Made by a program: the position numbers and the translations under genes. The notes under the pieces are model-generated. The model saw nothing but the letters and a program-made list of their open reading frames with translations. It was not told the DNA's origin and searched no databases. A stretch of 64,000 nucleotides of DNA from an uncultured Gammaproteobacteria bacterium (GTDB taxonomy: Bacteria; Patescibacteriota; Patescibacteriia; UBA9934), in contig CAZORP010000004.1 of assembly GCA_964582615.1 (NCBI GenBank), positions 1,900 through 65,899 of the forward strand. Direction: 5' to 3'. Positions 14,879 to 30,201 of the stretch are shown one piece after another. Each line of letters opens with the position of its first letter. Position 1 is the first letter of the stretch.

Positions 14879-15823
14879 TCATACCGACTGTGACTGTAGC
14901 AATTTCAGAATCTGTTTCCTCTGATGAATTGGCACCCGAATCCATACCGAGGTGGATTCAGCGACATTCGAAAAGAGCGGTTCAAGTACGCCATGTAACC
15001 ACTCTGAATCATCTGAGTAAAGCAAAGATGACTTCGATGTGATATCGGGAATATTCACCAGGCATCGCTTGTTCCCAAATTCAGACCAGTAGGCGTCGAT
15101 GGCTTCTTTGTAGTGACCTAGAAACGCAACTGGATCTTCGCTAATTTCAAGTTGCGAAAACACGAAGGTCTTATCATTGAAATAATTCTCCATGATCTTC
15201 GTGTCATTTCGGAGCGTCTCATCAAAGTGCTCGCGCATGCCAGCTGCACATTCTTCGAAATAGCGTCGCTCCCAGCCGCCCGACATCGTGACGTGCGGTG
15301 CTAATTCCTTAAATGCCGAAAGATCACGATCGTTCGTCTCTGACGACGTAAAGTTCAAAGTGTTCTGAAGAATTGCCAATGCAAGAACATTGGCACTCGT
15401 CGACGAAATTTTCTCATCGAAACCCCGCTTCTTGAACTCTTCCCAAATCAAGGTACCAGCGGCACCGACGCGTTCAATATGTGAGTGATCGCCGAGCCGT
15501 TCCTTCCAATACTCTTCGTAACCGTAGTGATGATCGTAAATCTCACAGATCTTTGATTCGTCCTCATTGGGAAAAGCAAAATGCTCTGGACCCGAAAGAT
15601 CGACGTAGACAAAACGATCTTCTGTAGTCGGCACATATTCCGTGAGGTAATCGCCTCCCTGTTCAAGAGCTAGTTTTGTAACAGAATGATTAAGCGGACC
15701 AATAAAAACAGCCACCGCATCCTTTCCTTCTTTCTGAAGGAGCTCGGCGTAGGCGATAGCACAACCAAAGGCGTCGATGTCATTAAAAGCCTTTCCGGCG
15801 GATACAATGTACATACTAGCCAC
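14879..15823 (-). CDS. ppaC: DHH-family manganese-dependent inorganic pyrophosphatase (family II PPase)
   Basis: NDIDAFGCAIAYAEL, DHHYGY, GAAGTLI and LALAILQNTLNFTS...AFKELA segments are collinear with family II PPase motifs; 314 aa. Confidence 0.65.
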   Translation of the reverse strand: MASMYIVSAGKAFNDIDAFGCAIAYAELLQKEGKDAVAVFIGPLNHSVTKLALEQGGDYLTEYVPTTEDRFVYVDLSGPEHFAFPNEDESKICEIYDHHYGYEEYWKERLGDHSHIERVGAAGTLIWEEFKKRGFDEKISSTSANVLALAILQNTLNFTSSETNDRDLSAFKELAPHVTMSGGWERRYFEECAAGMREHFDETLRNDTKIMENYFNDKTFVFSQLEISEDPVAFLGHYKEAIDAYWSEFGNKRCLVNIPDITSKSSLLYSDDSEWLHGVLEPLFSNVAESTSVWIRVPIHQRKQILKLLQSQSV

Positions 15824-15863
15824 AGATTACCGCACATTTCCTGAACCGCAAAACTCTCAGTTA

Positions 15864-15953
15864 TTGAAAAACCACCACTAAATGGTGACGGGTTTTCAGC
15901 AGTCGCTTTGGCTAGGAATCCTATAATAGTACCAAAGCGGCTCTTGGCGGGGC
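15864..15953. repeat. intergenic repeat element R1: palindromic terminator hairpin plus tRNA-Trp 3'-end-like fragment
   Basis: ttgaaaaacc-caccactaaatggtg-gggttttca hairpin, then a 28-nt block gggttttcagcagtcgctttggctagga and a 24-nt block accaaagcggctcttggc(g)gggc, both shared with R3 next to tRNA-Trp. Confidence 0.6.
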
Positions 15954-15981
15954 TTAGTAAGCGAGGTTGGAACCTTGATGA

Positions 15982-16431
15982 TCAGCGAGTGATGTATCGA
16001 AGGATGCTGAATTTCGAAGTGGCGGTGTATACAGCCCCATTGTATAAAGCTTCGCCGTCGTTAAGCGTAAGTGTCTCGCGATAGCTATCGCCCTTCTCTC
16101 CAGCCTCCGCGTATTTGAGTGTCAAAATTTCTTGATCGCTATCAGCTTGTCGAGACTCAATCTCCATGATTGAGTAAGAACGTTTTTCGCAATATTTATA
16201 GGCGCTACCGAAACCGGGTGAAGGTTCTGCTTCGGTAACTTCACGACGACATCCTGGGTCTATAGTGACTTTTGTAACAGATTGCGGATAGACGTGGACG
16301 TACGTGATTGCACTCGAAGCATCCTGGGTATGAACATACGAAGCTCGAGGCATCAACAGCCACACGAACACAATGAGTCCGGCGAGCGGCAGTACTCCTA
16401 TTACTGTCAATATTTGCAAGTGATGTTTCAT
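15982..16431 (-). CDS. small membrane-anchored hypothetical protein
   Basis: Internal Met MKHHLQILTVIGVLPLAGLIVFVWLL is followed by a TM helix; the upstream extension of the ORF runs into repeat R4 and is probably not coding. Confidence 0.35.
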   Translation of the reverse strand: MKHHLQILTVIGVLPLAGLIVFVWLLMPRASYVHTQDASSAITYVHVYPQSVTKVTIDPGCRREVTEAEPSPGFGSAYKYCEKRSYSIMEIESRQADSDQEILTLKYAEAGEKGDSYRETLTLNDGEALYNGAVYTATSKFSILRYITR

Positions 16432-16439
16432 ACCGGATG

Positions 16440-16640
16440 AAGCATAGCGGATTTTATCTCTTGCCACAATGCGGATTCGACTCAAAAGGCACCTCACACG
16501 CATGGGTTCGATCCTCTGATGGCATAAACAAAAATCCCCGCTGAAATTAGCGGAGACTTTTGTGGCAGGGCACATGACTACTGAACTCAATTTTCAGAGG
16601 CTTTCAAAGGGTTTCAGGAACTAGATACTGGGACGCAGGT
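16440..16640. repeat. intergenic repeat element R4 with tRNA-like fragments and a terminator
   Basis: tggcagggcac..ctgaactc..ttcag block shared with R2; gggttcgatcc T-loop-like fragment; ccccgctgaaattagcgg hairpin with a T-run on the minus strand. Confidence 0.5.
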
Positions 16641-16682
16641 ACAATTAAATGGATAACTGTATATCGTATGTATTTTAAAAGC

Positions 16683-17525
16683 TCACTCATCTTGAATTAA
16701 ATGGTTGGAAAGATCCATGCTCCCCAATTTTTGGAGCATTGTTTGAAAATCTGTTACTGGATAGAGGAGGCTTATAAATGAAGAAGGAATTGCGGCGTTG
16801 TTGACGGCTGCTCGATCATCAAACCCACCCATAAAATGCAGAAATGCTTGTGTATCTTGTGCTTGAGGAGGAAGATCTTGCATTCTTAAGAGTAAAATTT
16901 TATTAGCGATAGGATTTATATCTGGTGCTGCTAAAATAAATCCCCATTGTGGCGGATTCGTGTTATATTTGAAAATTGATATGAATTGTTCTCCTGATGG
17001 CAGTTCTATTTCTTTCTGCAAGCTCTCTAAAGACTGCCAAGTTGCTATTAGTTTTATACCTTCCCGTTTATTTTCTCCAAGGTTAAAATTTACGACCGAA
17101 CGTTTATTTGTAGTTTTATGATAATCTTCTGCACATTTGACTTCTTCAAATTCGCAAACGCCTTTAATTGATATAGTAAAGAAATGGCCGTTAAGTCTTG
17201 GTAGTGGAACGGATTGTTTTTTGATCGTTGTGATTATTTGACCATCCATTGAAAGATGAGCCTCGCCAAAATAATGATGAGCGAATTTAATTCTACGCCT
17301 TGTAACTTTTGCGAAATCTTTTGTAAGACTTAAGTCAAATTTTTGCGGCATATGGGGAGGCATAATTACGAGGCTCCCCAGCCCTTCAGATTTTTTATAG
17401 TAGGGAAATGTTACATAAACACTACCATCTGAAGAATACAAAATATCAAAAATTTTAAAACACTTTCCTGATTGTGTAACTGTGATTACGTGTCTTTTTG
17501 ATCTTATGGGTGCGAGTATTGCCAT
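16683..17525 (-). CDS. AT-rich orphan hypothetical protein (280 aa)
   Basis: Long ORF with markedly lower GC than the flanking genes (about 22-40% in sampled 60-nt stretches); flanked by R4 and R2. Confidence 0.45.
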   Translation of the reverse strand: MAILAPIRSKRHVITVTQSGKCFKIFDILYSSDGSVYVTFPYYKKSEGLGSLVIMPPHMPQKFDLSLTKDFAKVTRRRIKFAHHYFGEAHLSMDGQIITTIKKQSVPLPRLNGHFFTISIKGVCEFEEVKCAEDYHKTTNKRSVVNFNLGENKREGIKLIATWQSLESLQKEIELPSGEQFISIFKYNTNPPQWGFILAAPDINPIANKILLLRMQDLPPQAQDTQAFLHFMGGFDDRAAVNNAAIPSSFISLLYPVTDFQTMLQKLGSMDLSNHLIQDE

Positions 17526-17528
17526 ACA

Positions 17529-17760
17529 GTTGAAAAACCACCAGACATTGCTGGTGGGTTTTCAACTGCGGTCATAATGCACTTAACTGCCTTTGAGAGA
17601 CGCAGGTATCCGTGAGGATAATTAGCGTTGCCCTAGGTATTCAGGTATTTCGCACCATGACAGCGCTTGGCAGGGCACTCCGCTCCTGAACTCGTTTATT
17701 CAGGGGGTTTCGGAGGATTCTGACGGTATCAAGCGAGGGACTCCGGTCACGTAAACTGTT
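17529..17760. repeat. intergenic repeat element R2
   Basis: ttgaaaaaccaccag-acattg-ctggtgggttttcaa palindromic hairpin; gcgcttggcagggcac and ggactccggtcac blocks shared with R3 and R4. Confidence 0.55.
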
Positions 17761-17790
17761 ACAAAATGTTACATGTGACGGGTATGTTCA

Positions 17791-18177
17791 CTATTCGGTA
17801 CCTTCATCAATATCTTCGATATCTTGGGCTCTTTCGAGAGCTTCCACATCAACTTCGGAACTTAGGTCTTTTAGCTCACTGGATCTATCATCGTCCTGGG
17901 TACCTGTCGGCGAAACTGGCCGGCTGTACTCATCTAATGCATCAAATACAAATGGGAGATGTTCGTCGTAACTTACTTTATAGTTACGCGCATCTACAGT
18001 CTTTTTAATGTCCTTAGTTGCGGCAATTACTTTTTCACGATTTTTAATCCAGTAATCCTTCAACTCGTTTTCCCCTAAAATTTCAGCGATATACTTCGGA
18101 TCAAATTCATATCTCGTCGCCTCAAGCGCCCTGTGATCCTGGAAATGAATGAGTAAGAAATCGGCAAAAAACTCCAC
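17791..18177 (-). CDS. small acidic hypothetical protein (128 aa)
   Basis: ORF immediately downstream of the KAP NTPase gene; D/E-rich C-terminus. Confidence 0.4.
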   Translation of the reverse strand: MEFFADFLLIHFQDHRALEATRYEFDPKYIAEILGENELKDYWIKNREKVIAATKDIKKTVDARNYKVSYDEHLPFVFDALDEYSRPVSPTGTQDDDRSSELKDLSSEVDVEALERAQDIEDIDEGTE

Positions 18178-18204
18178 TGCCCGTTCGTTGCCCTGAGGAT
18201 TGAA

Positions 18205-20904
18205 TCAGACGTCAAAAATGTATACCTGCATCTCCTTACGGATCCCTTCGTTGTCATTGATGCCGTCAGGATCGAATAGACCACTTCCTAAGTCTGAATT
18301 AGTAATCCGATTATTTATTAACTGATAAATAATAAAACTTGCGGAGATAATTTTCTCGGTCTGAACCTCATTACTGATATCTTTCTTTTCCGAGCGGACG
18401 TAACTAAGCGAATCCCCGAATAATTCTTGGTCGCTTAATGCGTAAATATCAGAAATGAAGTTTTTATTCTGACCTACGTATCTATTCTTGAATTCTTTAT
18501 ATACCAACTGAGTAATTCGTCTCACCGTATCTTTACCTTCGTGATCTGTTGTTTCACCAATTTTCTTCGCATATGCACGCAATCCGCGTTCGAGGTTATA
18601 AAAATTACCGCCTCTATATGGACTACAGTGCAAGCGTAACTTGAGACCATCGTAAAACCCAATTACTCCATTTTCTGGATCTAGAACCTTACTAACGACA
18701 CTCTTCCGCTCGCCATCCTCGAACAATGCCTCGGCAATCTGTACGACATTTGTATCATCGTTGTGGTAATAGCCGTCGCGCTGATCTTGCCAGCCTCGTT
18801 GATTCAAAAGGTAGAGTATGCGCAGAGAAATGTCGTCCCGCAAGCCCGTTCCGAGACCATCCATCTCAATCGTCGAGAAACGACGCATGCTCTCCACGAA
18901 CCAGTGGATCGTAGCCAGCGCCGTTTGCTTTGAAAATAGATCCGTATTACGAACCATGGCCTGCAGCAGCAGGCTAAAATGATATTCGGCTGGGTTGCTG
19001 ACAGAGAAAATAAACTCCTCCTCTGAGGCGAGATCGCTCATCGTCTTCTCTCCAGATCCAATCTTCCTTGCTTCATTCACATAAAACTTTTTTGCTTGAG
19101 TTTTGATTTGAGTGACACGTTCGGTCATGAGTCGCAGATAACGCTCCAAACTTCTATCAAGATGGACCGTGCCGTTCATTGCTGCAGAAAAAACACTAAA
19201 ATCATCTTCTTTGTATTTTTTCGAGAATAATTGTGCGTCAAAAAGGTTTCTTAACAAAAATCTTTCGGCATCTGTCTTTTTCAATAAGTACTCTTTGAAA
19301 AATGCTGAATTTTCATATGAACTTTTTGAGCTTTCCCATTTCCACTTAATAGAAAAGTGCTCTTTTCCGTTAATTTCGGCCGTGTAAATGTCTCGAAAAG
19401 TTTCCGAAAAATTTAGATGCAACAAAAACAGGTTGATCAAATCGTAACCCTCAAAATCAAGCTGTTCGACATCCAGATCCAACAGTCGTAATCGGATAGT
19501 ATTTACCAATCGTTTTATTTTTCGAATATCACCCAAGACATCCTTGTATCTATAAAAGATCTCGGGTTTGAATACTTCATCAATTGCTTTCTCCATTGAT
19601 TCTTTCGAAGTTGGCGTAAATGAAGAGCCCTCTTCCTCTGTCTGCTCAAATAATTTATCTATAAGATATTTTTTAAGCATTTCTGGATTAATCGTTAAAA
19701 CCTGCTTCACCGTAACTACTTTCTCGAAGTATTCCCTGATCTGAGCGGTATCGATCGATTCACGTTCAATTTTAACCAACCTAGGATCATGATCGTTATC
19801 TGGCTTTTTACCCTGAGTGGTTTTCTCCGTCTGATCTGAGCCGCCTAGAGAAACCTGAAGGTGCTCTCGCGTCTTCGTGAGATGATAAAAGCTATTAACG
19901 TTCTGCGTATCGAAACAAGTTACAAAGGAAATATATGGCAGCTTGAGACTGACACGGATTACATCGATAAAGCGCTTCACCTCATCAATGGGAAGCCTAT
20001 CAAGATCATCAATAACAATGACGAGTCGCCGCCGGGCGATTTCCAGCTGCTCTCGAATCGCCTGAACTCTATCTTCGTCAGACAGCGAATCCGGAATAAA
20101 CGACGCTAACTCTAACTTAAATAACTTCGGATAAGGCTCAATCGCCTTGGCGTACCTTGCAAAGTAATCTCCAAGTTGAGGAACGAAATTATTCTCATCT
20201 AAAAAGCCAGACAGCTGTCGTAGGAATGCCGAAAGTACATGATCTTGATCGTATCTTAATGGTTCAAATGAAAAGACTAGCGCACCAGTCTCTTCGAGAC
20301 GCTTTTTACAAAAATGAAGATACGATGACTTGCCGTAGCCCCACGGTGCATCAATTCCGAATACAAGGCTATTTGGAGACCCATTATTTTCAAGTTTATT
20401 GGCAAAATCAATCGCGTCATTCTTAACACCAAGTACGTCCGATTCTTCATCGTCAGAGAGTGGTTCATCGGATAGAAAAAATGGCTTCACTGTATTCTTA
20501 TTCTTCAAACCGAGACGCCAACCTCTCAAATGTGTAGCAGCGATTATGACAATGATTAACTTAATAACCTCAAAGAGAGCTCCATTAAACAGTGGCAAAA
20601 ATGACCACTCGGCAAAGCATGCTCTGATGACTTCATGGTATCCCGCCGCCATCCCGACACCTAGGATTACCGAGATAGCGGAATCCCACTCGGATTCTAG
20701 ATGTCTAATGATTTTAAATGCGGGAAATACGACGAGCACAAGAAAGCCAATCGCGATCAGTGGAATCGCAAATAGCGCGGCAGGCTGATACTTTTCAAAA
20801 CTTTCATAACCCAATAAAACCGCCAATGCTATGCCGATCGAGACCGTGAAGATCTGAACATTCTTCTTCACTCTAGCTGTAAGTATTGTTTTGGTTAATG
20901 ACAC
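18205..20904 (-). CDS. KAP-family P-loop NTPase with N-terminal 4-TM membrane anchor
   Basis: Walker A GIDAPWGYGKSSY; Walker B LVIVIDDLDR; 899 aa; four N-terminal hydrophobic helices. Confidence 0.7.
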   Translation of the reverse strand: MSLTKTILTARVKKNVQIFTVSIGIALAVLLGYESFEKYQPAALFAIPLIAIGFLVLVVFPAFKIIRHLESEWDSAISVILGVGMAAGYHEVIRACFAEWSFLPLFNGALFEVIKLIIVIIAATHLRGWRLGLKNKNTVKPFFLSDEPLSDDEESDVLGVKNDAIDFANKLENNGSPNSLVFGIDAPWGYGKSSYLHFCKKRLEETGALVFSFEPLRYDQDHVLSAFLRQLSGFLDENNFVPQLGDYFARYAKAIEPYPKLFKLELASFIPDSLSDEDRVQAIREQLEIARRRLVIVIDDLDRLPIDEVKRFIDVIRVSLKLPYISFVTCFDTQNVNSFYHLTKTREHLQVSLGGSDQTEKTTQGKKPDNDHDPRLVKIERESIDTAQIREYFEKVVTVKQVLTINPEMLKKYLIDKLFEQTEEEGSSFTPTSKESMEKAIDEVFKPEIFYRYKDVLGDIRKIKRLVNTIRLRLLDLDVEQLDFEGYDLINLFLLHLNFSETFRDIYTAEINGKEHFSIKWKWESSKSSYENSAFFKEYLLKKTDAERFLLRNLFDAQLFSKKYKEDDFSVFSAAMNGTVHLDRSLERYLRLMTERVTQIKTQAKKFYVNEARKIGSGEKTMSDLASEEEFIFSVSNPAEYHFSLLLQAMVRNTDLFSKQTALATIHWFVESMRRFSTIEMDGLGTGLRDDISLRILYLLNQRGWQDQRDGYYHNDDTNVVQIAEALFEDGERKSVVSKVLDPENGVIGFYDGLKLRLHCSPYRGGNFYNLERGLRAYAKKIGETTDHEGKDTVRRITQLVYKEFKNRYVGQNKNFISDIYALSDQELFGDSLSYVRSEKKDISNEVQTEKIISASFIIYQLINNRITNSDLGSGLFDPDGINDNEGIRKEMQVYIFDV

Positions 20905-21353
20905 AGTTGTATGCGGAAAACCCTATCAAAATTGCGGCCAAATGACCAGCTCAAATGTCATGCAGAAAAGTCATTCTTCTTATCGTGCACAAAAAGCACA
21001 TTCTGACTCATACTGTACTATTTTGTACCAAAATAAGGCACTTATGCACAGATTCTCTCCGGAAAATTGACGTTGATTGTACGGGCGATAAAATATCTGT
21101 TGATCGCAATCACGATTACTAACTCGTAACTCATTTTTGCCCATGCAAATGTAAAACTATTGACGCGCATGACATGTCTTCTGGCGCAATGATGCTAAGA
21201 CCATCGATGCCAAAGACAAAAAGCTATGAACATTACTGCTCCGAAGGAGGGAGCAAATCAGCAATAGCCTTTTGTTTTTGTTATCGATCTCGTTAGGAAG
21301 TCCTATCGAATCGGTAGGGCTTCTTTGCTTTTTAACAACTTAATTTCAAATGT

Positions 21354-22631
21354 ATGCCTACTCAGATACAAACCACGTATGTTCCCATAACTAATCTGAA
21401 TCCCGCGCTCTACAACCCGCGCAAATGGGACAAAGAGGCGACGAAGAAGCTCCGCGAAAGCTTGGAGCGATTCGGCTTCGTCGACCCCATCCTCGTAAAC
21501 GGCGCACCCGATCGCATGAATATTGTCATCGGTGGTCATTTCCGTCTCAAAGTTGCGAAGGATATGGGCATGACGGAAGTCCCTGTCGTCTATCTCCATA
21601 TCCCAGACATCGAGAAGGAGAAGGAACTCAACCTTCGTCTCAATCGTAATACCGGTACGTGGGATTACGACCTTCTCAAGGCATTCGATACTAACTTCCT
21701 ACAGGATGTCGGCTTTGATGCGTTGGACCTCCAGAATGTCTGGGGAGATCTTGCATCCATCGACGACCGACTCATTCTGAAGGAGGGTGAGGTTGAACCT
21801 CCAGAAAAACCAACCATTCAAGATGGCGAAATCTATAAGCTCGGAGATCATCTTTTGATGTGTGCGGATTCTACAGGCCCCGCCAATGCCGCTCGTCTCA
21901 TGAGAGAAGAAAAAGCAGACATGATCTATTGTGATCCTCCGTATAACATCAAACTAGATTACGCGAATGGCGTTTCAACGGACGGCAAATACGCTGGGCA
22001 AGTAAATGATGCGTTGCCAGACGGTGAGTACCAAGAATTCATCAAAAAATCAGTCGAGGTTGCACTATCCGTCGCGAAGCCCGACGCACACATCTTTTAC
22101 TGGTGTGACCAGAGGTATATCTGGTTGGTTCAGCGTGTATATCGGCACTGGAAGATTGAAAATCGCCGCGTGTGCTTGTGGATCAAGAACAACTTCAACA
22201 TGACTCCGCAGGTTGCCTTCAATAAGGCATACGAGCCGTGCGTCTATGGAACGATCGGAAAGCCATACCTCAATCCTGATGTCACGAATCTTCACGAGAT
22301 CGTGAACAAAGACGTGGACGCGGGTAACCGAGCAACGAGCGACATCATCGATCTTTTTGACATCTGGCTTGCGAGTCGTGATGCAGGACAGGAATACGAA
22401 CACCCGACTCAAAAACCCCTCTCACTCCACGAGAAGCCACTGAAACGCTGCACAAAGCCGGGTGACGTTATCTTGGATCTCTTTGGTGGCAGCGGATCGA
22501 CGCTTCTTGCGTGCGAGCAAATGCGTCGCAAAGCAAGGCTCATAGAAAAGAATCCTGCATTTTGTCACGTCATCATCAAAAGATTCGAGGAGATGACCGG
22601 TCTTAAGGCTGAAAAAGTAACGAGTAACTAA
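21354..22631 (+). CDS. ParB-like nuclease domain fused to a beta-class N6A/N4C DNA methyltransferase
   Basis: N-terminal ParB/Srx-like region (YNPRKW...VNGAPDRMNIVIGGHFR); MTase motif IV CDPPYN before motif I FGGSGST. Confidence 0.75.
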   Translation: MPTQIQTTYVPITNLNPALYNPRKWDKEATKKLRESLERFGFVDPILVNGAPDRMNIVIGGHFRLKVAKDMGMTEVPVVYLHIPDIEKEKELNLRLNRNTGTWDYDLLKAFDTNFLQDVGFDALDLQNVWGDLASIDDRLILKEGEVEPPEKPTIQDGEIYKLGDHLLMCADSTGPANAARLMREEKADMIYCDPPYNIKLDYANGVSTDGKYAGQVNDALPDGEYQEFIKKSVEVALSVAKPDAHIFYWCDQRYIWLVQRVYRHWKIENRRVCLWIKNNFNMTPQVAFNKAYEPCVYGTIGKPYLNPDVTNLHEIVNKDVDAGNRATSDIIDLFDIWLASRDAGQEYEHPTQKPLSLHEKPLKRCTKPGDVILDLFGGSGSTLLACEQMRRKARLIEKNPAFCHVIIKRFEEMTGLKAEKVTSN

Positions 22632-22632
22632 T

Positions 22633-23418
22633 ATGGAAATTCAAAACGGTGCATTCATTCAACTTGGAAAGCATCGGCTTCTATGCGGTGATTCAACGAA
22701 TCCTTCAGATGTCGCAATGCTTCTTGGAGATACCCGCATCGATCTCGTGCTCACAGATCCTCCTTACGGCGTCGGTTATGTGGAAAGCAAGGAAGGATTC
22801 ACGCAGGAACTCGCTAAACCGAAGGTCATCGAGAATGATCACGTACAGACCGAAGAAGAGTATTTGGAGTTCACTAAGAAATGGCTCTCACTTATTCCTC
22901 CGTACCTCACAGATAAGAACGCGATCTACATCTTCAATACCGACAAAATGCTCTTTCCATTGCGAGCGGGTATGGAGTCATGTGGCATGAAGTTTGCGCA
23001 GCTCCTCATCTGGGCTAAGACTCATGCGGTCATTGGTCGCTTGGATTATCTTCCGCAGCACGAACTTATTGCTTACGGCTGGCACGGGACGCACGCGTTC
23101 AAGAAAGCCAAGGACAAAAGCATCCTCGTGCACCCAAAACCCGCCAAGAGCAAGTATCACCCGACCATGAAGCCGATTGGTCTTCTACGACGTCTTATTC
23201 TTAATAGCTCAGATGTTGGTTCAAACGTCTTTGATCCTTTTGGTGGAAGCGGCTCAACACTCCTTGCTTGCGAGCAAACAGGGCGTGTCTGCTTCATGAT
23301 CGAGAAAGACAAAGAGTACTGCCAAACCATCGTGAGTCTCTATGAACGCATGACGGGCGACGTCGCGGTAGTAATTGAACCAGCATATGGAGGAACCGAA
23401 GCAGCAACGCCGGTATGA
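22633..23418 (+). CDS. beta-class N6A/N4C DNA methyltransferase, paralog of the upstream MTase domain
   Basis: TDPPYGVGY and FGGSGSTLLACEQ; C-terminus near-identical in pattern to the upstream gene. Confidence 0.75.
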   Translation: MEIQNGAFIQLGKHRLLCGDSTNPSDVAMLLGDTRIDLVLTDPPYGVGYVESKEGFTQELAKPKVIENDHVQTEEEYLEFTKKWLSLIPPYLTDKNAIYIFNTDKMLFPLRAGMESCGMKFAQLLIWAKTHAVIGRLDYLPQHELIAYGWHGTHAFKKAKDKSILVHPKPAKSKYHPTMKPIGLLRRLILNSSDVGSNVFDPFGGSGSTLLACEQTGRVCFMIEKDKEYCQTIVSLYERMTGDVAVVIEPAYGGTEAATPV

Positions 23419-23926
23419 GAACGCTCAACGTCGGAAGGCTAAACAGAAACTACAAATCATCAATACGCTTCGAGAGACGGGCAATATCGAGGCCGCCTGT
23501 CGCAAAGTCGGCATCGCGCGCAATACGTATTACGTGTGGGCTAAGGATGATCACGAATTCAAGATTGAAGCCGAGAAGGCTCTTGTCATTGGCACCGAGG
23601 TAGTTTGTGACACTCTTGAAAGCAGGTTAGTCGCTCGAGCGAATTCGGGCGAGGGCTGGGCGTTGAAGTACTATCTCGGGAATAAGCATCCAGATTACAG
23701 TCCGCGAGCCAGCGCCCGCAAATATCATCGAGAGAATGAGCAGTCTGATGAATTCTCTGATGAAGATGAGCGCCACATTGAGCATGCTCTAAAAATGCTC
23801 GAGTACTTGGAGCCCTGTGAGGACCCGTCCCACCATGGCCACAAGATGCTACCTCCGCCTCCGCCGGCGGCTGTCAATGACAAAGCAGGCGACGACGACG
23901 AGGATCTTGACGGTGCATTTAGCTAA
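23387..23926 (+). CDS. HTH protein resembling terminase small-subunit / transposase-type HTH, with an acidic C-terminal tail
   Basis: GNIEAACRKVGIARNTYYVW helix-turn-helix; start could also be 23375. Confidence 0.4.
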   Translation: MEEPKQQRRYENAQRRKAKQKLQIINTLRETGNIEAACRKVGIARNTYYVWAKDDHEFKIEAEKALVIGTEVVCDTLESRLVARANSGEGWALKYYLGNKHPDYSPRASARKYHRENEQSDEFSDEDERHIEHALKMLEYLEPCEDPSHHGHKMLPPPPPAAVNDKAGDDDEDLDGAFS

Positions 23927-24529
23927 CTACTTTGTCACTTCCGTAGAAAGGAAAACCGTGGTGGTCTGCTTCGTGGCATCGTTTACCGCAACGAGTCCAT
24001 AGCCGATCGTGTCACTTGGGATTTCATAAACGATCACGCCCTTCTTTGGAATGGACGGACTGAGCGTCTGAACTTCCAAATAGTTATCGATAGATCCGAT
24101 GGTGTCATCGTAGGTCGTATAACCCCGCCCTTCGCCATCTCCGAGTCGCAAGTACTGGTTTGGCATGTAGAGAAAATCCGAGGTCGACTTCGAGGTCACT
24201 TGCAGTTCAATAATGACAAACTTCGTCCCCTCAACGGCAGCGACCGGCTTGCCGTAGCGTGAACTCATGGTTTGCGCCTCACGGACACTGAGAACCTTCA
24301 TCTCATGCGTTGCGAGGTCGATTGGATTGTTGATCTTTGCCTCGACGACTTCTTTCTCGGAATTCTTGGTGTTCGTAGTTATGGAACCGGACGGAGTTAC
24401 CGTGGTCTTTGGACGATCGCTTCCGTCATCCATGTACGGTGCGATAATGAAAATGAACAAAATGAAACCGAGGACTCCCGTGAGGATCTTATGCTGCTTG
24501 AACCAGCTCTGTTTTGGGTCATTCGACAT
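23927..24529 (-). CDS. membrane-anchored DUF4352-like protein
   Basis: N-terminal TM helix; Thr/Ser-rich linker; beta-rich domain with YLRLGDGEGRGY...VIVYEIP. Confidence 0.4.
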   Translation of the reverse strand: MSNDPKQSWFKQHKILTGVLGFILFIFIIAPYMDDGSDRPKTTVTPSGSITTNTKNSEKEVVEAKINNPIDLATHEMKVLSVREAQTMSSRYGKPVAAVEGTKFVIIELQVTSKSTSDFLYMPNQYLRLGDGEGRGYTTYDDTIGSIDNYLEVQTLSPSIPKKGVIVYEIPSDTIGYGLVAVNDATKQTTTVFLSTEVTK

Positions 24530-24879
24530 AGTAAAGCGTATGAGGAATTAATCCCGAGTATTGCTAAAACAAAAAGCGACACCCGGTGGCGCTTTACAAC
24601 CCAGCCCAAGCACGGATCGTGCAAGGTCTGTTTTAACCGGATGCCGCTCATTGCGCGCGATCCGGAAATAGCCAAATACGGCCTGCAAAGGCTGAGTTGT
24701 AAAGCACCGACATAGTAGCATAGGCACCCCCAAAGTAAAGCGATTTGCTCAGTATTTTGCCTTTCCTTATACCTTGAGGGCTTTTGAGTTACCTACAGGT
24801 CTGGGGCTAGGCACCCCGGACAGGTGTGGCATCAATGTAGCTGTCCCCTAGGGAACTAGGGCGCACAAACTACGAACAT

Positions 24880-26295
24880 ATGCCGGAACACAATCCGCTC
24901 CACAGTCCCACGCTTCTCGCGGAAAATAGAGCTAACAATATAGGTAAAGGCGATGCAAAAGTTGATCTTCGGTATTGCCTCTATGCACGCAAGTCATCCG
25001 AAGATGACGAACGTCAAGCGTTGTCCATCGATTCACAAATCAACGAAATGATGGAACTGGCGAGAAAGGAAGGAATGGACATCGTTGAGACGCGTCGAGA
25101 GAGTCATTCAGCAAAGTCATCCGGCGAGCGACCGGAATTCAATCAATTGATGATCGATATCGATAAAGGACTCTTCAATGCCATTCTCACATGGGCGCCA
25201 GATCGCTTGAGTCGTAACGCTGGAGATCTTGGGTCACTCGTTGATCTCATGGATCGTGCGAAGCTTCATGAGATCAGGACGCACTCACAGAAGTTCACGA
25301 ACTCACCGAATGAAAAGTTCCTCCTGATGATCCTCGGAAGCCAGGCAAAGCTCGAGAATGACAATCGCGGTATTAATGTAAAACGTGGCCTCAAGAACAA
25401 AGTTGAAATGGGATGGCGGCCAGGACTTCCGCCCCTTGGCTACTACAACGAGAGATCAATTAATCGCGGTCAGAATAGAATCTTCATCGATGAAGAACGT
25501 GCACCGACCATTAAAAAGCTCTTTGAACTCGTCGCGTACGAAAAGATGACTGGAAGGGCACTTTTTACCTACTTGAAAGAGATTAATTTCAAAACGCGAA
25601 CCGATAAATTCGTCAGTGTTAGTAGCGTCTACAAGATCCTCAAGAACAGATTTTATTACGGCGAGTTCGAGTTCCCGGAAGGGAGCAGCAAGATCTATAA
25701 GGGAGCACACGAACCGCTTATAACAAAAGAGTTGTTCGATCGCGTACAAAATCAGCTCACTATTCCCGACCGACCAATCCAAGGCATTAAAGAATTCTCT
25801 TTTACGAAGATGTTCAAATGCGGCGCATGCGGCTCCGGCATCACCGCAGAGGAAAAGATTAAGAAGATCAAAGGAACAGAAGAGATACGAAAATACATCT
25901 ACTATCGGTGCGGAAAATCCAACGGGCGTATCTGTGACGAGAAGCCGATGCGTGAACAAGATATCCTCAATCAGCTCCTAGAACTTATTGATTCAATCGA
26001 GATCGATAGGATTGGTGCGCAAAAACGCATCGAAGACGAGCTGAAGCGTTACGCTGCATTCTCAGAAGGGGTGCTCGGAAAGAAGATCAATAAGCCAAAA
26101 CAAAAGGAGGTCAGCATTCGAAAATATGCAAAGCATATTCTCACAAATGGAACTCGCGAGGAGAAGCGAGAAATTCTGGAGCATGTAAAACACTGTATAG
26201 TGATATTCAATAGAGCTCTAAAGCTCGAATCCCTGGCACTGCCTAATGAAGCAAGAGAAGACCCCCCACGTTTAGAGAAACGCGGGGGGTCATGA
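24880..26295 (+). CDS. large serine recombinase (integrase)
   Basis: Resolvase catalytic region YARKSSEDDERQALSIDSQ; recombinase domain; zinc-ribbon CGACGSG...YYRCG; coiled-coil C-terminus. Confidence 0.8.
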   Translation: MPEHNPLHSPTLLAENRANNIGKGDAKVDLRYCLYARKSSEDDERQALSIDSQINEMMELARKEGMDIVETRRESHSAKSSGERPEFNQLMIDIDKGLFNAILTWAPDRLSRNAGDLGSLVDLMDRAKLHEIRTHSQKFTNSPNEKFLLMILGSQAKLENDNRGINVKRGLKNKVEMGWRPGLPPLGYYNERSINRGQNRIFIDEERAPTIKKLFELVAYEKMTGRALFTYLKEINFKTRTDKFVSVSSVYKILKNRFYYGEFEFPEGSSKIYKGAHEPLITKELFDRVQNQLTIPDRPIQGIKEFSFTKMFKCGACGSGITAEEKIKKIKGTEEIRKYIYYRCGKSNGRICDEKPMREQDILNQLLELIDSIEIDRIGAQKRIEDELKRYAAFSEGVLGKKINKPKQKEVSIRKYAKHILTNGTREEKREILEHVKHCIVIFNRALKLESLALPNEAREDPPRLEKRGGS

Positions 26296-26297
26296 AG

Positions 26298-27143
26298 TCA
26301 CTCGAGGCGTCGAATCGCAGCCCGGAGGACGTCGGCTGCGAGGGTGTTGGGCTTATACCTCAGACCGAGAACGCTCCGAGGCAACTCACCGCACGTGATA
26401 CCGAGGGAATCGTAAAAGTCTGCGGTTGCACCGAGGACTCTTCTCGAAAACTCTCGTTCGACGTTCTTCGGAATCGAAGCCCACTGCGTGGGCTTCCCGA
26501 ACGGCAAGACATAGGGAGCTCCGGTATTCAGAAGGCCCATGACCGTTCTTCCGGAAAGTGGCGCACCCGGCATGAAGTCTCGTTCGCAGATCTCATCTGT
26601 GACTTCGGAGTATTCACGTACTGCCGTGACAGAGCAGTTACGTGCCCGCAGTCGCTCAATACCTTCACCGATTGCGACACCGGCGAAAACGTGGCCAACC
26701 CGAATGTTTCGCTCCAGGAAGAGATCGATGATGCGTTCCATCATCGCTCCGCTGAAAACCACGTCATCCACGAGAGCTATGTCACGCTCATGGATAGTCG
26801 CAGCTACCTCGTCCACGATGGCGGTCAAATCCGTGTAGATGCCATCTCTCGTCCCGTAACCAGCATCACGTAGACCGCCATCAACCAGTCTGGTGACGTT
26901 GATCTGCAGCGCTCTCGGTGCGTAGACTCGATCCAGGCTGACGACCGGGAACGAAGAGTTGGCGAGGATATCCGAGAGCCCATCACGCAGCTCGCTCTCG
27001 GAAATCCATTCAGTCGAGCCAACGCTAACGTGCAAGGCGCTCTTCACCTCAGCGCGAAACCCCTCCAACACCGTATCGGGAACAACAAACCCAGCCTCTC
27101 GCCACAGCGTAGCGAGATCACAGGACACAACGTACGGACGCAT
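26298..27143 (-). CDS. type I phosphoribosyltransferase-domain protein, GC-rich
   Basis: PRPP-binding motif IALVDDVVFSGAMM; GC content clearly above that of its neighbours. Confidence 0.5.
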   Translation of the reverse strand: MRPYVVSCDLATLWREAGFVVPDTVLEGFRAEVKSALHVSVGSTEWISESELRDGLSDILANSSFPVVSLDRVYAPRALQINVTRLVDGGLRDAGYGTRDGIYTDLTAIVDEVAATIHERDIALVDDVVFSGAMMERIIDLFLERNIRVGHVFAGVAIGEGIERLRARNCSVTAVREYSEVTDEICERDFMPGAPLSGRTVMGLLNTGAPYVLPFGKPTQWASIPKNVEREFSRRVLGATADFYDSLGITCGELPRSVLGLRYKPNTLAADVLRAAIRRLE

Positions 27144-27220
27144 GTCGAACTCCTTGGAACCTCCCAGCGTCTTTGCCGGGAGGGAGCGAATGCACTGCTT
27201 TCACTGCAACCGATCCCTTC

Positions 27221-27772
27221 CTACAAAGAAGGGATTTGATGCACGACACGCACCGCTTGGATGGCCATAGCGACCGCAGCTTCCGGAGTTGATGCAACTT
27301 CGATACGTACTCGTTCACGCGGGTCAATAAATGTCCCAGCGAGACGTTCACTCCAGCCGCCAGTATTCTCGATGGTAATAATCGGAATATTGGCCTGATA
27401 GGCGATAGCCATTTCCGTGAGTGTTCCGGAGCCACCGTTTAAACAAATGATTGCATCGCAAGATGATACAAGTACAAACTCTCGACCGCCGCCACGACCC
27501 ATACCTGCCGTGACAATTGCGTCAGCGTTCTTTTCAACAACACCGTCAATGTCTTTGCCGTAGGTAACCCCAACCACAAAGCCTCCCGCACGCTTTGCAC
27601 CGCGGCAGGCGGCGGATGAAAGCGAATCAAGGTCTTTCTCTGCGCCGAACAATAAAATCGCACCCGCTTTCGCAATCTCTTCACCGACGCTTTCGGCTAA
27701 CACTGCAATCTTCGTTGAGTACTGAAGATCCGAACAAGAGCCCATCACGCCAATCTGTAATTTTCGTTTCAT
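27221..27772 (-). CDS. LOG / TIGR00725-like Rossmann-fold nucleotide-binding protein
   Basis: IGVMGS start and NGGSGTLTEMA (GGxGTxxE) motif. Confidence 0.55.
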   Translation of the reverse strand: MKRKLQIGVMGSCSDLQYSTKIAVLAESVGEEIAKAGAILLFGAEKDLDSLSSAACRGAKRAGGFVVGVTYGKDIDGVVEKNADAIVTAGMGRGGGREFVLVSSCDAIICLNGGSGTLTEMAIAYQANIPIITIENTGGWSERLAGTFIDPRERVRIEVASTPEAAVAMAIQAVRVVHQIPSL

Positions 27773-27773
27773 A

Positions 27774-28997
27774 TTATTTCGTGTAGTTTGTGATATCGAC
27801 AGTTCGCTGTTCTCCGGAAACCATGTTCTTCACTATCACCGAATTCGATGCCGCCTCTTCGGGGGTAATCATGATCACTTCTGTCGCATTGAGGCGATTC
27901 GCCATCGTCAGCTGCTTTTTCATACTGTAGGGCGGCATAGCAAGAATAGCGATCTTTCCGTCTACTCTGAGACTCTGCGCGATAGTCGTTGCAAGCGATG
28001 CTTCGTTTTCAGAAAACGGCAAAATGAACGTCTTCTCAGGCGAATTAACTGTGACGGTTTTTTGCTGCGCCTCAAGTGCCGCGAGTAGTGCCACGTCGCT
28101 TACAGCAAACCCAATACCACTCATCGACTTACCGCCGACTGCCTCCAGGAGGTTGTCATAGCGACCGCCGCCAAACACAGCTCTATTGAATGATCCGGAT
28201 GTCTCGACCACTTCAAAAACAATACCCGTGTAATAAGAGAAGCCACGCATAAGCTTTGGATCGTATACAAGCTGTGTCCAGCCAAGCTTTTTCGCTCCGG
28301 CAATTACATTCAATAATCGTTGTGTCGGTTGAATGTCGTCAAGAATAGCCAAATCTTCCTGCCGCAGGTTCGGACTAATTTCCTTCAGTCGAGCGATGAA
28401 TTCTTCTAATGTCAGTTTATCTCGTTCGTCCAGAAGTGTGAGCATTTGCCCCTTTTCATCTCCGACAATGGACAGTCGTTCGCATGTGACGTCGAAAGAT
28501 GTTCGATCATTCATGCACATCTGAATCTTCTCCATATCGAATCCGATCTTTTTCATGATCGAAAGGGCGACGTCAACGATCTCGATATCGGCTTCAATAG
28601 TATTCGATCCAAGAAAATCAACATTGATCTGGACAAAGTTTCTCGTACGACCTTTCTGAGGGCGTTCGTAACGCCAGCATTCAGGAAAACTAAACCATCG
28701 AATAAGTGATGGGAGTTCGCCTTGCTTATTCGCCACCATACGTGCGAATGAAGGCGTAAGTTCTGGACGAACAACGATCTTTTCCCCGCCACGATCCGTG
28801 AAAACATAAGACTGACGCTCAACGATTTCGGCACTGGATTTCGCCTCATAAAGAGCCATCGGCTCCAAGATTGGTGCTTCGTATTCTTCGTAACCAGCGC
28901 ACTCCAAAACAGCTCTACAAGAGCTCGTTAGTGCATTGCGCTCACGCATGTCGTTCGGATAGAGGTTACGTGTACCTCGTAATGGTTGAATCTGCAT
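27774..28997 (-). CDS. hisS: histidine--tRNA ligase
   Basis: Motif 2 RYERPQKGRTRNFVQINVDFLG; motif 3 GGGRYDNL; C-terminal anticodon-binding-like domain; 407 aa. Confidence 0.75.
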   Translation of the reverse strand: MQIQPLRGTRNLYPNDMRERNALTSSCRAVLECAGYEEYEAPILEPMALYEAKSSAEIVERQSYVFTDRGGEKIVVRPELTPSFARMVANKQGELPSLIRWFSFPECWRYERPQKGRTRNFVQINVDFLGSNTIEADIEIVDVALSIMKKIGFDMEKIQMCMNDRTSFDVTCERLSIVGDEKGQMLTLLDERDKLTLEEFIARLKEISPNLRQEDLAILDDIQPTQRLLNVIAGAKKLGWTQLVYDPKLMRGFSYYTGIVFEVVETSGSFNRAVFGGGRYDNLLEAVGGKSMSGIGFAVSDVALLAALEAQQKTVTVNSPEKTFILPFSENEASLATTIAQSLRVDGKIAILAMPPYSMKKQLTMANRLNATEVIMITPEEAASNSVIVKNMVSGEQRTVDITNYTK

Positions 28998-29180
28998 ATA
29001 CTTTGCTTAGAAAATAAAGAAACCCGCCGATAAGCGGGCTTCTCTGCAGTCATTCAATGGAATAACGTCAAACAATCCCGCTTATGCATGGCGGGTATGA
29101 TGAGAAACGTTAAATGCGTTGCGCATTGATTCCATAACGCTGGAAGAATACCGTGAACTCTGAAAAATGTCAATATAGAT
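28998..29180 (-). promoter_or_regulatory. possible hisS promoter with a structured leader containing alternative hairpins
   Basis: TTGACA on the minus strand near 29170; two hairpins with the same stem (cccgc..gcggg), the second followed by a T-run about 25 nt before the hisS ATG. Confidence 0.25.
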
Positions 29181-29189
29181 CCGATAGGC

Positions 29190-29987
29190 CTACTTTAGAA
29201 TGATAGGCCTTGCCGCAAATTTGTTAACCAATTCAACAACCGCTTTTACGCTTGCTTCATAATCTGCATCTAGTAGCCGAACATACAATGGCTCATATCC
29301 GGAGATGGAAACACCTCCGTTTTTCTGGTGCACAACCGCATCTCTAAGCTTCTTAGCTTTCATGAAAGTACCCCAGAAAGCCTCCTGTTTGATTGAAGAT
29401 TGATCCTTAATATCGGCCAACACTTCCAACTTCTCAACGGTCGATAACCTATGTTCAATTTCAACCTTCGTGAGTTTCTCTGTGTAATTTTTCCCGAAGA
29501 AAGCCATAATCTTTTGAAGAATTCCTCGAGGCTTTACGGTTCGATGAAGCACGTGCTGACTCGGTATCGCCTGCGTGCAAAATACCTCAACAGCTGCAAG
29601 AAGAGCGAAGTGAAAGGACATTGCGCTTTGGAAGAAGCGATAGGCGAGTTCTTTTGGAACAATAGTTACCACCTCTGCGTTTGGATCTTCTTGCAATGCG
29701 CGTTCTGCAGTCATCTCAGGATCCGGACTCGATGTAAACACCTGCTTCTGTGGCGTAGATGCAATCTCTGCTTTTAAGGCGGCAACTTCATCAGCCAATC
29801 GGCATGCCTCGTTCAAAAGAAGATGACAGGGTGATTGAGCGATAATCATCAGACTTCCGAAGGTCATTGTATCGAGCTTGTGGCTCAATACGAGTTTAGC
29901 ACCCTTCTCGTGTTTTATTTTTGAACCAGCTATCTGGACAGGTTGTGCTAACTCTGATTCGAAGATAGGTTCAATTTCTATATGCAT
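29190..29987 (-). CDS. hypothetical protein (265 aa)
   Basis: ORF with coding-like composition between R3/tRNA-Trp and the hisS leader; no motif recognised. Confidence 0.4.
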   Translation of the reverse strand: MHIEIEPIFESELAQPVQIAGSKIKHEKGAKLVLSHKLDTMTFGSLMIIAQSPCHLLLNEACRLADEVAALKAEIASTPQKQVFTSSPDPEMTAERALQEDPNAEVVTIVPKELAYRFFQSAMSFHFALLAAVEVFCTQAIPSQHVLHRTVKPRGILQKIMAFFGKNYTEKLTKVEIEHRLSTVEKLEVLADIKDQSSIKQEAFWGTFMKAKKLRDAVVHQKNGGVSISGYEPLYVRLLDADYEASVKAVVELVNKFAARPIILK

Positions 29988-30010
29988 ACTATTATTTTAA
30001 AGTTTACCTA

Positions 30011-30127
30011 TTGAAAAACCGCCACCTTTCGATGACGGGTTTTCAGCAGTCGCTTTGGCTAGGACTCCGGTCACAGGAACCCGTCCTGAGTCCTATGGGA
30101 ATCCGGTCACAGCACCAAAGCGGCTCT
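30011..30127. repeat. repeat element R3 immediately downstream of tRNA-Trp: hairpin plus nested inverted repeats
   Basis: Shares the 28-nt and 24-nt blocks with R1; internal palindromes (gtgaccgga[tg]tcc x2, aggactc..gagtcct). Confidence 0.6.
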
Positions 30128-30201
30128 TGGCAGGGGCGGAGGGAATCGAACCCGCGCTAAAGGTTTTGGAGACCTCTGTACTGCCATTATACGACGCCCC
30201 T
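30128..30201 (-). tRNA. trnW: tRNA-Trp (anticodon CCA)
   Basis: Reverse-complement reads AGGGGCGTCGTATAATGGCAGTACAGAGGTCTCCAAAACCTTTAGCGCGGGTTCGATTCCCTCCGCCCCTGCCA; acceptor AGGGGCG/CGCCCCT; U8; anticodon loop CTCCAAA; TTCGATT T-loop; encoded CCA; ends closely resemble E. coli tRNA-Trp. Confidence 0.85.

Follow-up and report, generated by a model that had tools for sequence, protein, structure and literature searches.

Repeat units behind a tRNA-Trp gene of a Patescibacteria genome as probable junctions of a tandem integration array

The locus described here lies within a 64,000-nt stretch (assembly GCA_964582615.1, contig CAZORP010000004.1, positions 1,900-65,899, forward strand), which is referred to below as the window, and consists of an intact tRNA-Trp gene followed by a series of repeat units, R3, R2, R4 and R1, with protein-coding genes between them. 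A preliminary description had taken these four repeats for one family, in which each member starts with a palindrome, carries blocks resembling tRNA 3' ends and separates one single gene from the next, and had compared the arrangement with integron cassettes or serial integrations. All units are oriented like tRNA-Trp (30201-30128), on the minus strand, and share the order of an arm (X of about 110 nt or Y of about 30 nt), a core, an optional trailer hairpin, a terminator and the next start codon. The core is an 8-10 nt copy of the tRNA-Trp 3' end, CC(C)TGCCA, and the trailer hairpin is present in most units, R4 being without it. Contigs from other assemblies that were compared with the window are labelled L002, L008, L009, L010/L012, L029 and L031. 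The parts of the array, from the tRNA onward, are as follows.

30128-30201, minus strand: intact tRNA-Trp (CCA), directly abutting R3 (ARAGORN; Rfam RF00005, 56 bits)
30009-30137, minus strand: R3 unit, palindrome to trailer at 30011-30127 (BLASTN, ARAGORN)
30046-30127, minus strand: R3 trailer, a long hairpin of 82 nt with the outer stem CGCUUUGGU/GCCAAAGCG (fold; 98.8% identical to L012)
30011-30045, minus strand: R3 intrinsic terminator, the palindrome of the preliminary description (terminator call)
17668-30127, minus strand: E1, putative youngest element, 12.4 kb, with predicted boundaries (arms by homology to L012, L029 and L031)
17530-17777, minus strand: R2 unit, made up of X arm, core, diverged trailer and palindrome-family terminator (homology, fold)
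17678-17777, minus strand: R2 X arm (profile of four X copies, E 4e-32)
17666-17677, minus strand: R2 core TGCCCTGCCAAG, a copy of the tRNA-Trp 3' end (sequence match)
17530-17665, minus strand: R2 diverged trailer hairpin and palindromic terminator (17530-17564) (fold)
16562-16671, minus strand: R4 decayed X arm and core GCCCTGCCA (16563-16571) (X profile, E 4e-23)
16526-16561, minus strand: R4 terminator (AAAAGUCUCCGCUAAUUUCAGCGGGGAUUUUUGUUU), outside the palindrome family (terminator call, fold)
15862-15953, minus strand: R1 unit (BLASTN to R3)
15942-15986, minus strand: R1 Y arm (GGTTCCAACCTCGCTTACTAA, with a pseudo T-loop) and core GCCCCGCCA (15945-15953) (Y profile, E 1e-8)
15864-15944, minus strand: R1 short trailer and palindromic terminator (15864-15898), directly upstream of a DHH gene (BLASTN, alignment)

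The tRNA-Trp gene is the single tRNA detected in the window by ARAGORN and Rfam, and because it adjoins R3, R3 represents the 3' trailer of the tRNA itself. The 3' end of the tRNA, GCCCCTGCCA (30128-30137), recurs as GCCCCGCCA at 15945-15953 and as GCCCTGCCA at 17668-17676 and 16563-16571; the three copies share one orientation, and each is followed by a terminator. Thus, the resemblance to tRNA 3' ends that had been noticed earlier holds for all units, since the tRNA-Trp 3' end recurs in R1, R2 and R4 and the tRNA itself abuts R3. The short core alone is at chance level in the window (4 matches vs 3.5 expected), and therefore the significance rests on the ordered combination of the parts and on their homologues in other genomes. 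Profiles of X, Y and the trailer gave no copies beyond the array over the 64-kb window. The palindrome TTGAAAAACC..GGGTTTTCA is present at 15864-15898, 17530-17564 and 30011-30045 and was called as a minus-strand terminator at all three positions, so that the claim that each repeat starts with it is correct for R1, R2 and R3 and incorrect for R4, which has a different hairpin (16526-16561).

The R3 trailer contains two direct 13-mers, GTGACCGGA(T/G)TCC, at 30098-30110 and 30062-30074. Rfam searches of the whole window at the gathering threshold, and of R1-R4 (R3; 15800-17800) at E values up to 10, yielded only the tRNA as a credible match. A small signal recognition particle (SRP) RNA or another known hairpin RNA was considered for the trailer and rejected, as there was no model match and there were no conserved SRP motifs.

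R1 and R3 belong to one family, as had been proposed: BLASTN aligned them at 87% over 60 nt (E 1e-15) and 84% over 38 nt (E 1e-6), and 84 of the 92 bases of R1 are identical, with one deletion of 36-37 nt in R1. The deleted span corresponds to one 13-mer and the 23 nt between the two 13-mers, which fits slippage between direct repeats. The similarity extends into the final tRNA bases (GCCCCGCCA vs GCCCCTGCCA). The Y arm that precedes the R1 core resembles the segment from the T-loop to the 3' end of a tRNA and is yet 5 nt too long for a true tRNA end; the same module was found in L012, in L029 (three copies) and in L002 (two copies).

In R2, the X arm is composed, in order, of CACATGTAACATTTTGTAACAG, the 13-mer GTGACCGGAGTCC (17738-17750), which also occurs in the R3 trailer, and a pseudo anticodon/T-arm hairpin (17678-17715). 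The nested hairpin CUCCG..CUGAA..UUCAG..CGGAG resembles the anticodon loop and T-arm of a tRNA (CCUCCGAAACC vs UCUCCAAAACC in tRNA-Trp). This X arm is 88% identical to L012:3166-3248 globally (BLAST 87% over 83 nt, E 5e-22) and 78% identical to L029:2553-2661. The R2 trailer, whose stem GUCAUGGUGCG/UGCAUUAUGAC includes G-U pairs, stands in the same place as that of R3 with a different sequence; the two agree in their first bases, and the R2 trailer was found at E 3e-4 by a trailer profile built without R2. The R2 terminator is 80% identical to those of R1 and R3. Descent of the X arm from the resident tRNA-Trp by decay was also considered and rejected, because the X copies of three genomes share their own CTGAA/TTCAG hairpin and are closer to each other than to the tRNA.

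For R4 (16526-16671), the proposed membership in the family was borne out in part. BLAST of R4 against R1, R2 and R3 inside the window gave no match; its X arm is 68% identical to that of R2 and 70% identical to that of L012 (BLAST E 2e-5), and, judged by such similarity, R4 is a member only through its X arm and core. The X profile was built from the four X copies including R4, so that its score for R4 is a consistency check and not an independent test. Within the wider R4 interval (16432-16682), a tRNA-like fragment of opposite orientation (..CATGGGTTCGATCCTCTGATGGCA..) lies at 16463-16520 on the plus strand; it is not called by ARAGORN or Rfam and may be a scar of a reverse-oriented element or tRNA.

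Two independent Logan contigs from the same sample are 100% identical to the window at 26987-15888 and 15915-4879, which indicates that the array is not an assembly artefact. Both end inside R1 with a 28-nt overlap (15888-15915), and R1 and R3 have an identical 30-mer; such a break is expected of a repeat, and integrated and excised forms are indistinguishable from contigs alone.

The genes that lie between and around the units, with the recombinase that bears on their origin, are listed below.

24880-26295, plus strand: large serine recombinase, 471 aa (Pfam Resolvase, Recombinase and Zn_ribbon_recom; phrog_95 integrase, E 7e-65)
18205-20904, minus strand: KAP-family P-loop NTPase, 899 aa, with N-terminal membrane segments (best PADLOC match PifA, E 2e-18; G+C 42%)
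17791-18177, minus strand: open reading frame (ORF) of 128 aa (no Pfam, PHROGs, PADLOC or NCBIfam match)
16683-17525, minus strand: ORF of 280 aa, cargo of unit E2 (no Pfam, PHROGs, PADLOC or NCBIfam match; 36.3% G+C)
15982-16431, minus strand: ORF of 149 aa with an N-terminal hydrophobic stretch, cargo of unit E3 (no Pfam, PHROGs, PADLOC or NCBIfam match)
14879-15814, minus strand: DHH-family phosphoesterase gene, the first gene beyond the last junction (Pfam DHH)

The idea that each repeat separates single genes was right insofar as the minus-strand ORFs at 15982-16431, 16683-17525 and 17791-18177 lie between units, and wrong insofar as there is no repeat between the last of these and the KAP NTPase gene; this next gene upstream (18205-20904) is part of the 12.4-kb unit E1 and not of a single-gene cassette. 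Read in the sense of the tRNA, and with gene labels taken from Pfam, PHROGs, PADLOC and NCBIfam, E1 contains the trailer, the terminator, a 265-aa gene, hisS, a SLOG-family gene, a 281-aa gene, the large serine recombinase, a DUF4352 gene, a terS-like helix-turn-helix (HTH) gene, two DNA methylases, the PifA-like KAP NTPase, the 128-aa gene and the X arm. The 265-aa ORF had only a weak PHROGs match of unknown function (E 0.003). Smaller units follow: E2 (17665-16562) and E3 (16561-15945) each hold one ORF, with att-type sites on both sides and no recombinase domain, as is characteristic of passenger units. The G+C content per gene ranges from 36% to 57% across the array, and the 280-aa gene, which had been singled out as foreign, is indeed distinct in composition (36.3% vs 46.4% for the window). 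Its product has only two homologues among 5.8 billion proteins, one from the same organism and the other (72% identity) on L029.

The start codons stand close behind the terminators, 23 nt past that of R3 and 4 nt past that of R2. Unit-gene starts (17525-17533, 29987-29993 and 15814-15820; L012:2366-2374) are preceded by (T/C)(A/T)GT, giving TAGTATG, CTGTATG and CAGTATG. Two of them lie 4-6 nt past the T-run of the terminator, leaving no room for a Shine-Dalgarno sequence or a promoter, and hence their expression may depend on read-through or leaderless transcripts.

The same parts were found in other genomes, around other genes. A scan of 185,579 species genomes with an exact pattern gave one true match, L010/L012, a Patescibacteria metagenome-assembled genome from Hainich groundwater, and one chance match. 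Scanning of JGI metagenomes returned the L010/L012 contig again together with six chance matches in unrelated coding sequence, and scans of IMG/VR returned none, or six chance matches of a 17-mer. Comparison of the window with L012 indicated that the tRNA-Trp genes are 82.4% identical and the trailers 98.8% (81 of 82 nt), with 48-53% identity in the 100-nt flanks. The switch in identity falls at CCCTGCCA: the two tRNAs differ only 5' of it, and in each of them the acceptor stem is still matched to the 5' end of that tRNA. Past the trailer of L012 there is a single unrelated gene of 265 aa, followed by an X arm, core and terminator; a pair of genes is then followed by a Y arm, core and terminator, and one last gene by another core and terminator. 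None of the L012 cargo ORFs had a Pfam match, and those scanned against PHROGs or PADLOC had none there either.

On L029, a contig of 5.2 kb, five junctions were recognized: Y and core; X, core and terminator directly after a 276-aa homologue (72%) of the 280-aa protein; Y, core and terminator; core and terminator; and, at the contig end, Y and core with the first 45 nt of an R3-type trailer (97.8%, BLAST). At the first of these (L029:283-325), the terminator is missing and the CCAC of the core runs into AAGGGAATAGAAC, which in L012:3242-3310 follows the terminator after a second CCAC; the L029 form looks like a deletion between short repeats. Between the window and L029, homology sets in 5 nt ahead of the start codon of the 280-aa gene, at the point where the R2 terminator adjoins, and two more genes precede the 276-aa homologue inside its unit. 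These two extra genes, with the break in homology before the ATG, suggest that the one-gene unit of the window is a deletion derivative and not a designed cassette.

Relatives of the DHH gene allowed the locus to be compared over a range of divergence, and the source names of these homologues place the organism in Patescibacteria. No synteny was found at this locus via DHH homologues of 62-88% identity, and the neighbours are unrelated in the relatives of 62-82%. In L002 (DHH 77%), junctions composed of Y, core and terminator stand behind a tRNA-Asp, and the DHH orthologue lies between two junctions (L002:6072-11160). The core of the L002 junctions, GCCCCGCCA, is that of R1 in the window and not that of tRNA-Trp, and the L002 array holds two paralogous two-gene modules (332 and 95 aa, 326 and 78 aa). 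L009 (DHH 88%) retains a degenerate R1 upstream of DHH (E 2e-4, profile). The DHH gene, too, may be cargo of long standing. Three relatives share a conserved AT-rich motif (TTTTGTCAATATAGATAGGCTATTTAGTGGCTAAT, with variants) upstream of DHH or other genes (L009:290-345, L008:1040-1085 and L029:4045-4095); this possible operator or promoter was not seen ahead of the DHH gene of the window. Except for the 280/276-aa pair, the cargo proteins are unrelated among the window, L012, L029 and L002. The expectation that copies flank variable gene content was therefore confirmed, with the arms bounding unrelated cargo in L012, L029 and L031, and the opposite case, in which the repeats are conserved terminators of syntenic core genes, does not agree with the lack of synteny at 62-88% DHH identity and the differing cargo.

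The large serine recombinase is the sole recombinase found by Pfam among the 39 ORFs of the window, and the same scan gave no phage-integrase/tyrosine recombinase domain. Its best NCBIfam match is CcrB, far under the cut-off (105 vs 900 bits). The family is abundant in Patescibacteria, with 7,996 proteins at E ≤ 1e-60 among 8,000 candidates scored. On long contigs, the three closest homologues (83, 79 and 74% identity) are accompanied by a backbone of a ParB-methylase, a methylase, a terS-like HTH gene, a terL-like gene, DUF4352 and the recombinase, flanked on both sides by variable defence-type genes (type I restriction-modification, GmrSD, SMODS and an AAA_13 ATPase). The window has this backbone minus the terL-like gene, with the PifA-like KAP NTPase on one side and an operon of hisS, SLOG and phosphoribosyltransferase (PRTase)-like genes on the other. 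The contig of the 83% homologue, L031, ends 5.5 kb past the recombinase, after variable cargo, in an R3-type trailer and terminator (BLAST 90.6% over 96 nt; 87% globally), whose position and orientation relative to the recombinase are as in the window. As the intervening cargo of L031 and the window is unrelated, the backbone is tied to the tRNA-Trp trailer in two genomes. The recombinase is tentatively regarded as a plausible catalyst of the integrations. In IMG/VR, its relatives (47-54% identity) had no tRNA and no X, Y or trailer on their contigs.

Several observations concern the neighbours of the recombinase gene. A 14-bp near-perfect palindrome (GACCCCCCGCGTTTCTCTAAACGTGGGGGGTC) at 26260-26291 occupies its last codons and is also the terminator of the convergent 281-aa gene, and in all three homologous loci as well the recombinase gene abuts a convergent gene without a spacer. 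The operon at 26298-28997 on the minus strand encodes hisS (27774-28997), a SLOG/TIGR00725-family protein and the 281-aa protein with a weak PRTase-like match (57% G+C); hisS passes the NCBIfam equivalog cut-off of TIGR00442 (308 vs 287 bits). This operon fills the slot that holds restriction-modification, GmrSD or AAA_13 defence genes in the homologous recombinase elements, and the KAP NTPase gene lies at the opposite end of E1. The operon may be chromosomal; alternatively, it may represent an aminoacyl-tRNA synthetase carried by the element together with nucleotide-modifying partners.

The observed anatomy and homologies of the units, the recurrence of their arms around different cargo elsewhere and the abrupt rise in identity where the tRNA gives way to the trailer indicate that the units are probably att-site junctions of a tandem array that arose by repeated site-specific integration at the tRNA-Trp 3' end. 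An incoming circular element would bring an attP with three parts, namely, an X or Y pseudo-tRNA arm, a short core that matches the 3' end of the tRNA exactly, and a trailer with terminator to replace the resident one. A crossover in this core, probably within CCCTGCCA, the last 8 nt of the tRNA, would place the trailer and terminator of the element behind the now-hybrid tRNA, which would explain a trailer of 98.8% identity beside a tRNA of 82%; the far end would then consist of the X or Y arm of the element, a core copy, and the previous trailer and terminator. Every new arrival would thereby displace older units away from the tRNA, with the newest standing next to it. On this model, E1 (30127-17668) would be the recombinase element; E2 would comprise the R2 trailer and terminator, the 280-aa gene and the R4 X arm, with the R2 trailer as its tRNA-side arm; in E3, the 149-aa gene would stand between the R4 terminator and the R1 Y arm; and the R1 trailer would be either the one that the chromosome had at first or an arm of some older unit with DHH in it. 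The 13-mers are putative protein-binding sites, and E2 and E3 may be deletion remnants or recombinase-less passengers, by analogy with cis-mobilizable elements or pseudo-SCC. The locus has the features of a tRNA island, namely, an intact tRNA at one end and direct repeats of its 3' part at the other ends, a site-specific recombinase gene inside the island, variable content between related genomes and compositional anomaly. The serial integrations that had been suggested at the outset thus gain support from the att-like order of parts, the start of the array at an intact tRNA-Trp, the different cargo elsewhere and the recombinase inside the array.

Some points weigh against repeated integration as the origin of the array. 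Mobility is deduced from comparative anatomy only, and the contigs compared include no empty site, circular form or strain polymorphism. The single exact pattern was recovered in one further genome, so that either the family is rare or the pattern is too strict. No recombinase was found on L012 within the 15.6 kb available (12 kb downstream and 3.6 kb upstream of tRNA-Trp), and in the window the recombinase is 3.7 kb from the nearest predicted boundary and not at an edge. If hisS is the sole genomic copy, the region at 26.3-29 kb may be chromosome and the boundaries of E1 wrong. Furthermore, large serine recombinases as a rule require no more than simple sites and an overlap of 2 bp, which leaves the long arms and the 13-mers unexplained; Ccr and DsiB systems leave direct repeats of 15-20 bp.

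Among other explanations, the small units may constitute a cassette platform analogous to an integron, in which modules of one to three genes are mobile, are captured at the tRNA 3' end and are excised in trans by the recombinase of a full-length element or by one encoded elsewhere. The dense junctions and small modules (E2 and E3 in the window, three units in 2.5 kb of L012 and five junctions in 5.2 kb of L029), the cargo orientation that mostly follows that of the tRNA, the lack of recombinase or methylase pseudogene relics in the small units, and the retention of arms around swapped cargo, as in L012, where the trailer (98.8%) and the X arm (88%) enclose one unrelated gene, would all suit such a platform. 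However, the two further genes in the unit of the 276-aa homologue suggest a deletion derivative in the window, the R4 X arm has decayed (68% to R2), no excision products were present among the contigs compared, and no recombinase lies next to the tRNA. We therefore consider this explanation unlikely, and equally doubtful is its fuller form, a Patescibacteria cassette platform at tRNA-Trp (and tRNA-Asp) with the serine recombinase family of the ParB-methylase/terS backbone element as its catalyst.

Alternatively, the trailer may be primarily a functional structured RNA that is co-transcribed with tRNA-Trp, as a 3'-processing or stability element or a small RNA, with the other copies as duplicated or decayed RNA genes. 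Its strong folding together with the terminator (-54.3 kcal/mol and z -4.5 in the window; z -8.5 in L012, where the terminator stem is perfect at positions differing from those of R3) is in line with this explanation, as are the near identity of the trailers beside tRNAs at 82%, the sole substitution between R3 and L012, which changes a G-U pair to G-C, and the retention in R2 of a long hairpin in the same place with a different sequence, whose G-U pairs are valid only in tRNA-sense RNA. Nevertheless, the sense and antisense strands of the trailer fold nearly equally well (-34.9 vs -31.0 kcal/mol), a gap too small to separate a role at the RNA level from one at the DNA level; no Rfam match was obtained at E up to 10; unlike a housekeeping RNA, the trailer is limited to a handful of assemblies; and copies lie at a distance from any tRNA, each of them accompanied by a core and an arm. 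Near identity next to diverged flanks is, moreover, the mark of recent horizontal transfer. A primary role as RNA is thus improbable, and it is compatible with the integration model, as the tRNA may obtain a functional trailer from the element. Finally, it is very hard to credit that the units are ordinary terminators or intergenic DNA of syntenic core genes, or a local tandem duplication of the tRNA-Trp 3' region without mobility: three of them do share a typical intrinsic terminator and the core alone is not above chance, but synteny is lacking in relatives, the same arms stand beside unrelated genes in other genomes, G+C varies from 36% to 57% from unit to unit, and the pseudo-tRNA arms are not copies of the resident tRNA-Trp.

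Compared with known systems, the array that we attribute to repeated integration is closest to the ssrA islands of Dehalococcoides. These are tandem, encode a CcrB-like serine recombinase and a ParB-domain gene, and have 20-bp direct repeats with adjacent conserved motifs (PMC3146451); 15 of them are without an integration module and were interpreted as cis-mobilizable (McMurdie et al, 2011, PMC3146451). The likeness thus comprises the tandem arrangement behind a tRNA-like gene, the short direct repeat of the 3' end with extra conserved sequence, the CcrB-type recombinase with a ParB-domain gene, and the recombinase-less units. In contrast to the transfer-messenger RNA (tmRNA) target and 20-nt repeat in Dehalococcoides, the target here is tRNA-Trp (tRNA-Asp in a relative) and the core is 8-10 nt; an 82-nt trailer hairpin and a terminator are supplied, the passengers are of one to three genes, and the recombinase is not beside attL.

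Serine-recombinase integration at the 3' end of a conserved gene is also known from SCCmec and pseudo-SCC of staphylococci, in which CcrAB or CcrC acts at the 3' end of rlmH, with junction repeats, tandem stacking and ccr-less units. The window shares the type of target, the direct repeats at every junction, the stacking and the recombinase-less units, and the best NCBIfam match of its recombinase is CcrB; however, that match is far under the cut-off, the target is a tRNA and not rlmH, and the host phylum and cargo are different. In streptococci, cis-mobilizable elements that are flanked by att sites and have no recombinase or transfer genes form tandem arrays with a complete element at the 3' end of a tRNA gene. 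This accretion of recombinase-less, att-flanked units is alike, whereas tyrosine integrases and conjugative elements are involved there and no conjugation genes are present here.

In Prochlorococcus, only partial tRNAs stand between one integration and the next, and a minority of these elements, the tycheposons, use large serine recombinases (bioRxiv 10.1101/2020.12.28.424599). Points in common are the stacking at one tRNA, in which older elements are moved inward by each newer one, the remnants and partial tRNAs left scattered, and the streamlined genomes. Tycheposons are, however, defined by a tyrosine recombinase lineage and hallmark replication genes, and Pfam scans of 15.8-30.2 kb gave no tyrosine recombinase, primase or helicase module, which places the array outside them. 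With integrons, the array shares small, co-oriented, mostly one-gene modules that each end in a structured repeat and are stacked by a fixed site. The reading of the repeats as attC-like, on the other hand, was not supported: there is no IntI and no tyrosine recombinase among the 39 ORFs, the R''/L''-L'/R' boxes are absent, and inspection of the four units gave no GTTRRRY at their borders, the palindromes being GC stems with T-runs that were called as terminators. Instead of attC, the units have tRNA-derived cores and terminators, and each starts past a terminator and not from a common promoter.

Tandem, tRNA-anchored integrative elements with recombinase-less passengers are thus known; what is unusual here is the Patescibacteria host, the small size of the units and the well-conserved arms. 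Patescibacteria have tiny genomes, and their routes of gene exchange are little established. The locus reveals a concrete route, in which a family of recombinase-bearing elements with defence-type cargo would dock at the tRNA-Trp 3' end and leave a stack of small units. The X and Y arms and the trailer provide sequence handles for finding such islands in fragmented metagenome assemblies, where these repeats also break contigs. If the small units are mobile in trans, they would constitute a serine-recombinase counterpart of integron cassettes, built on a tRNA gene; as it stands, the finding adds a new phylum and a new target to the range of a known mechanism.

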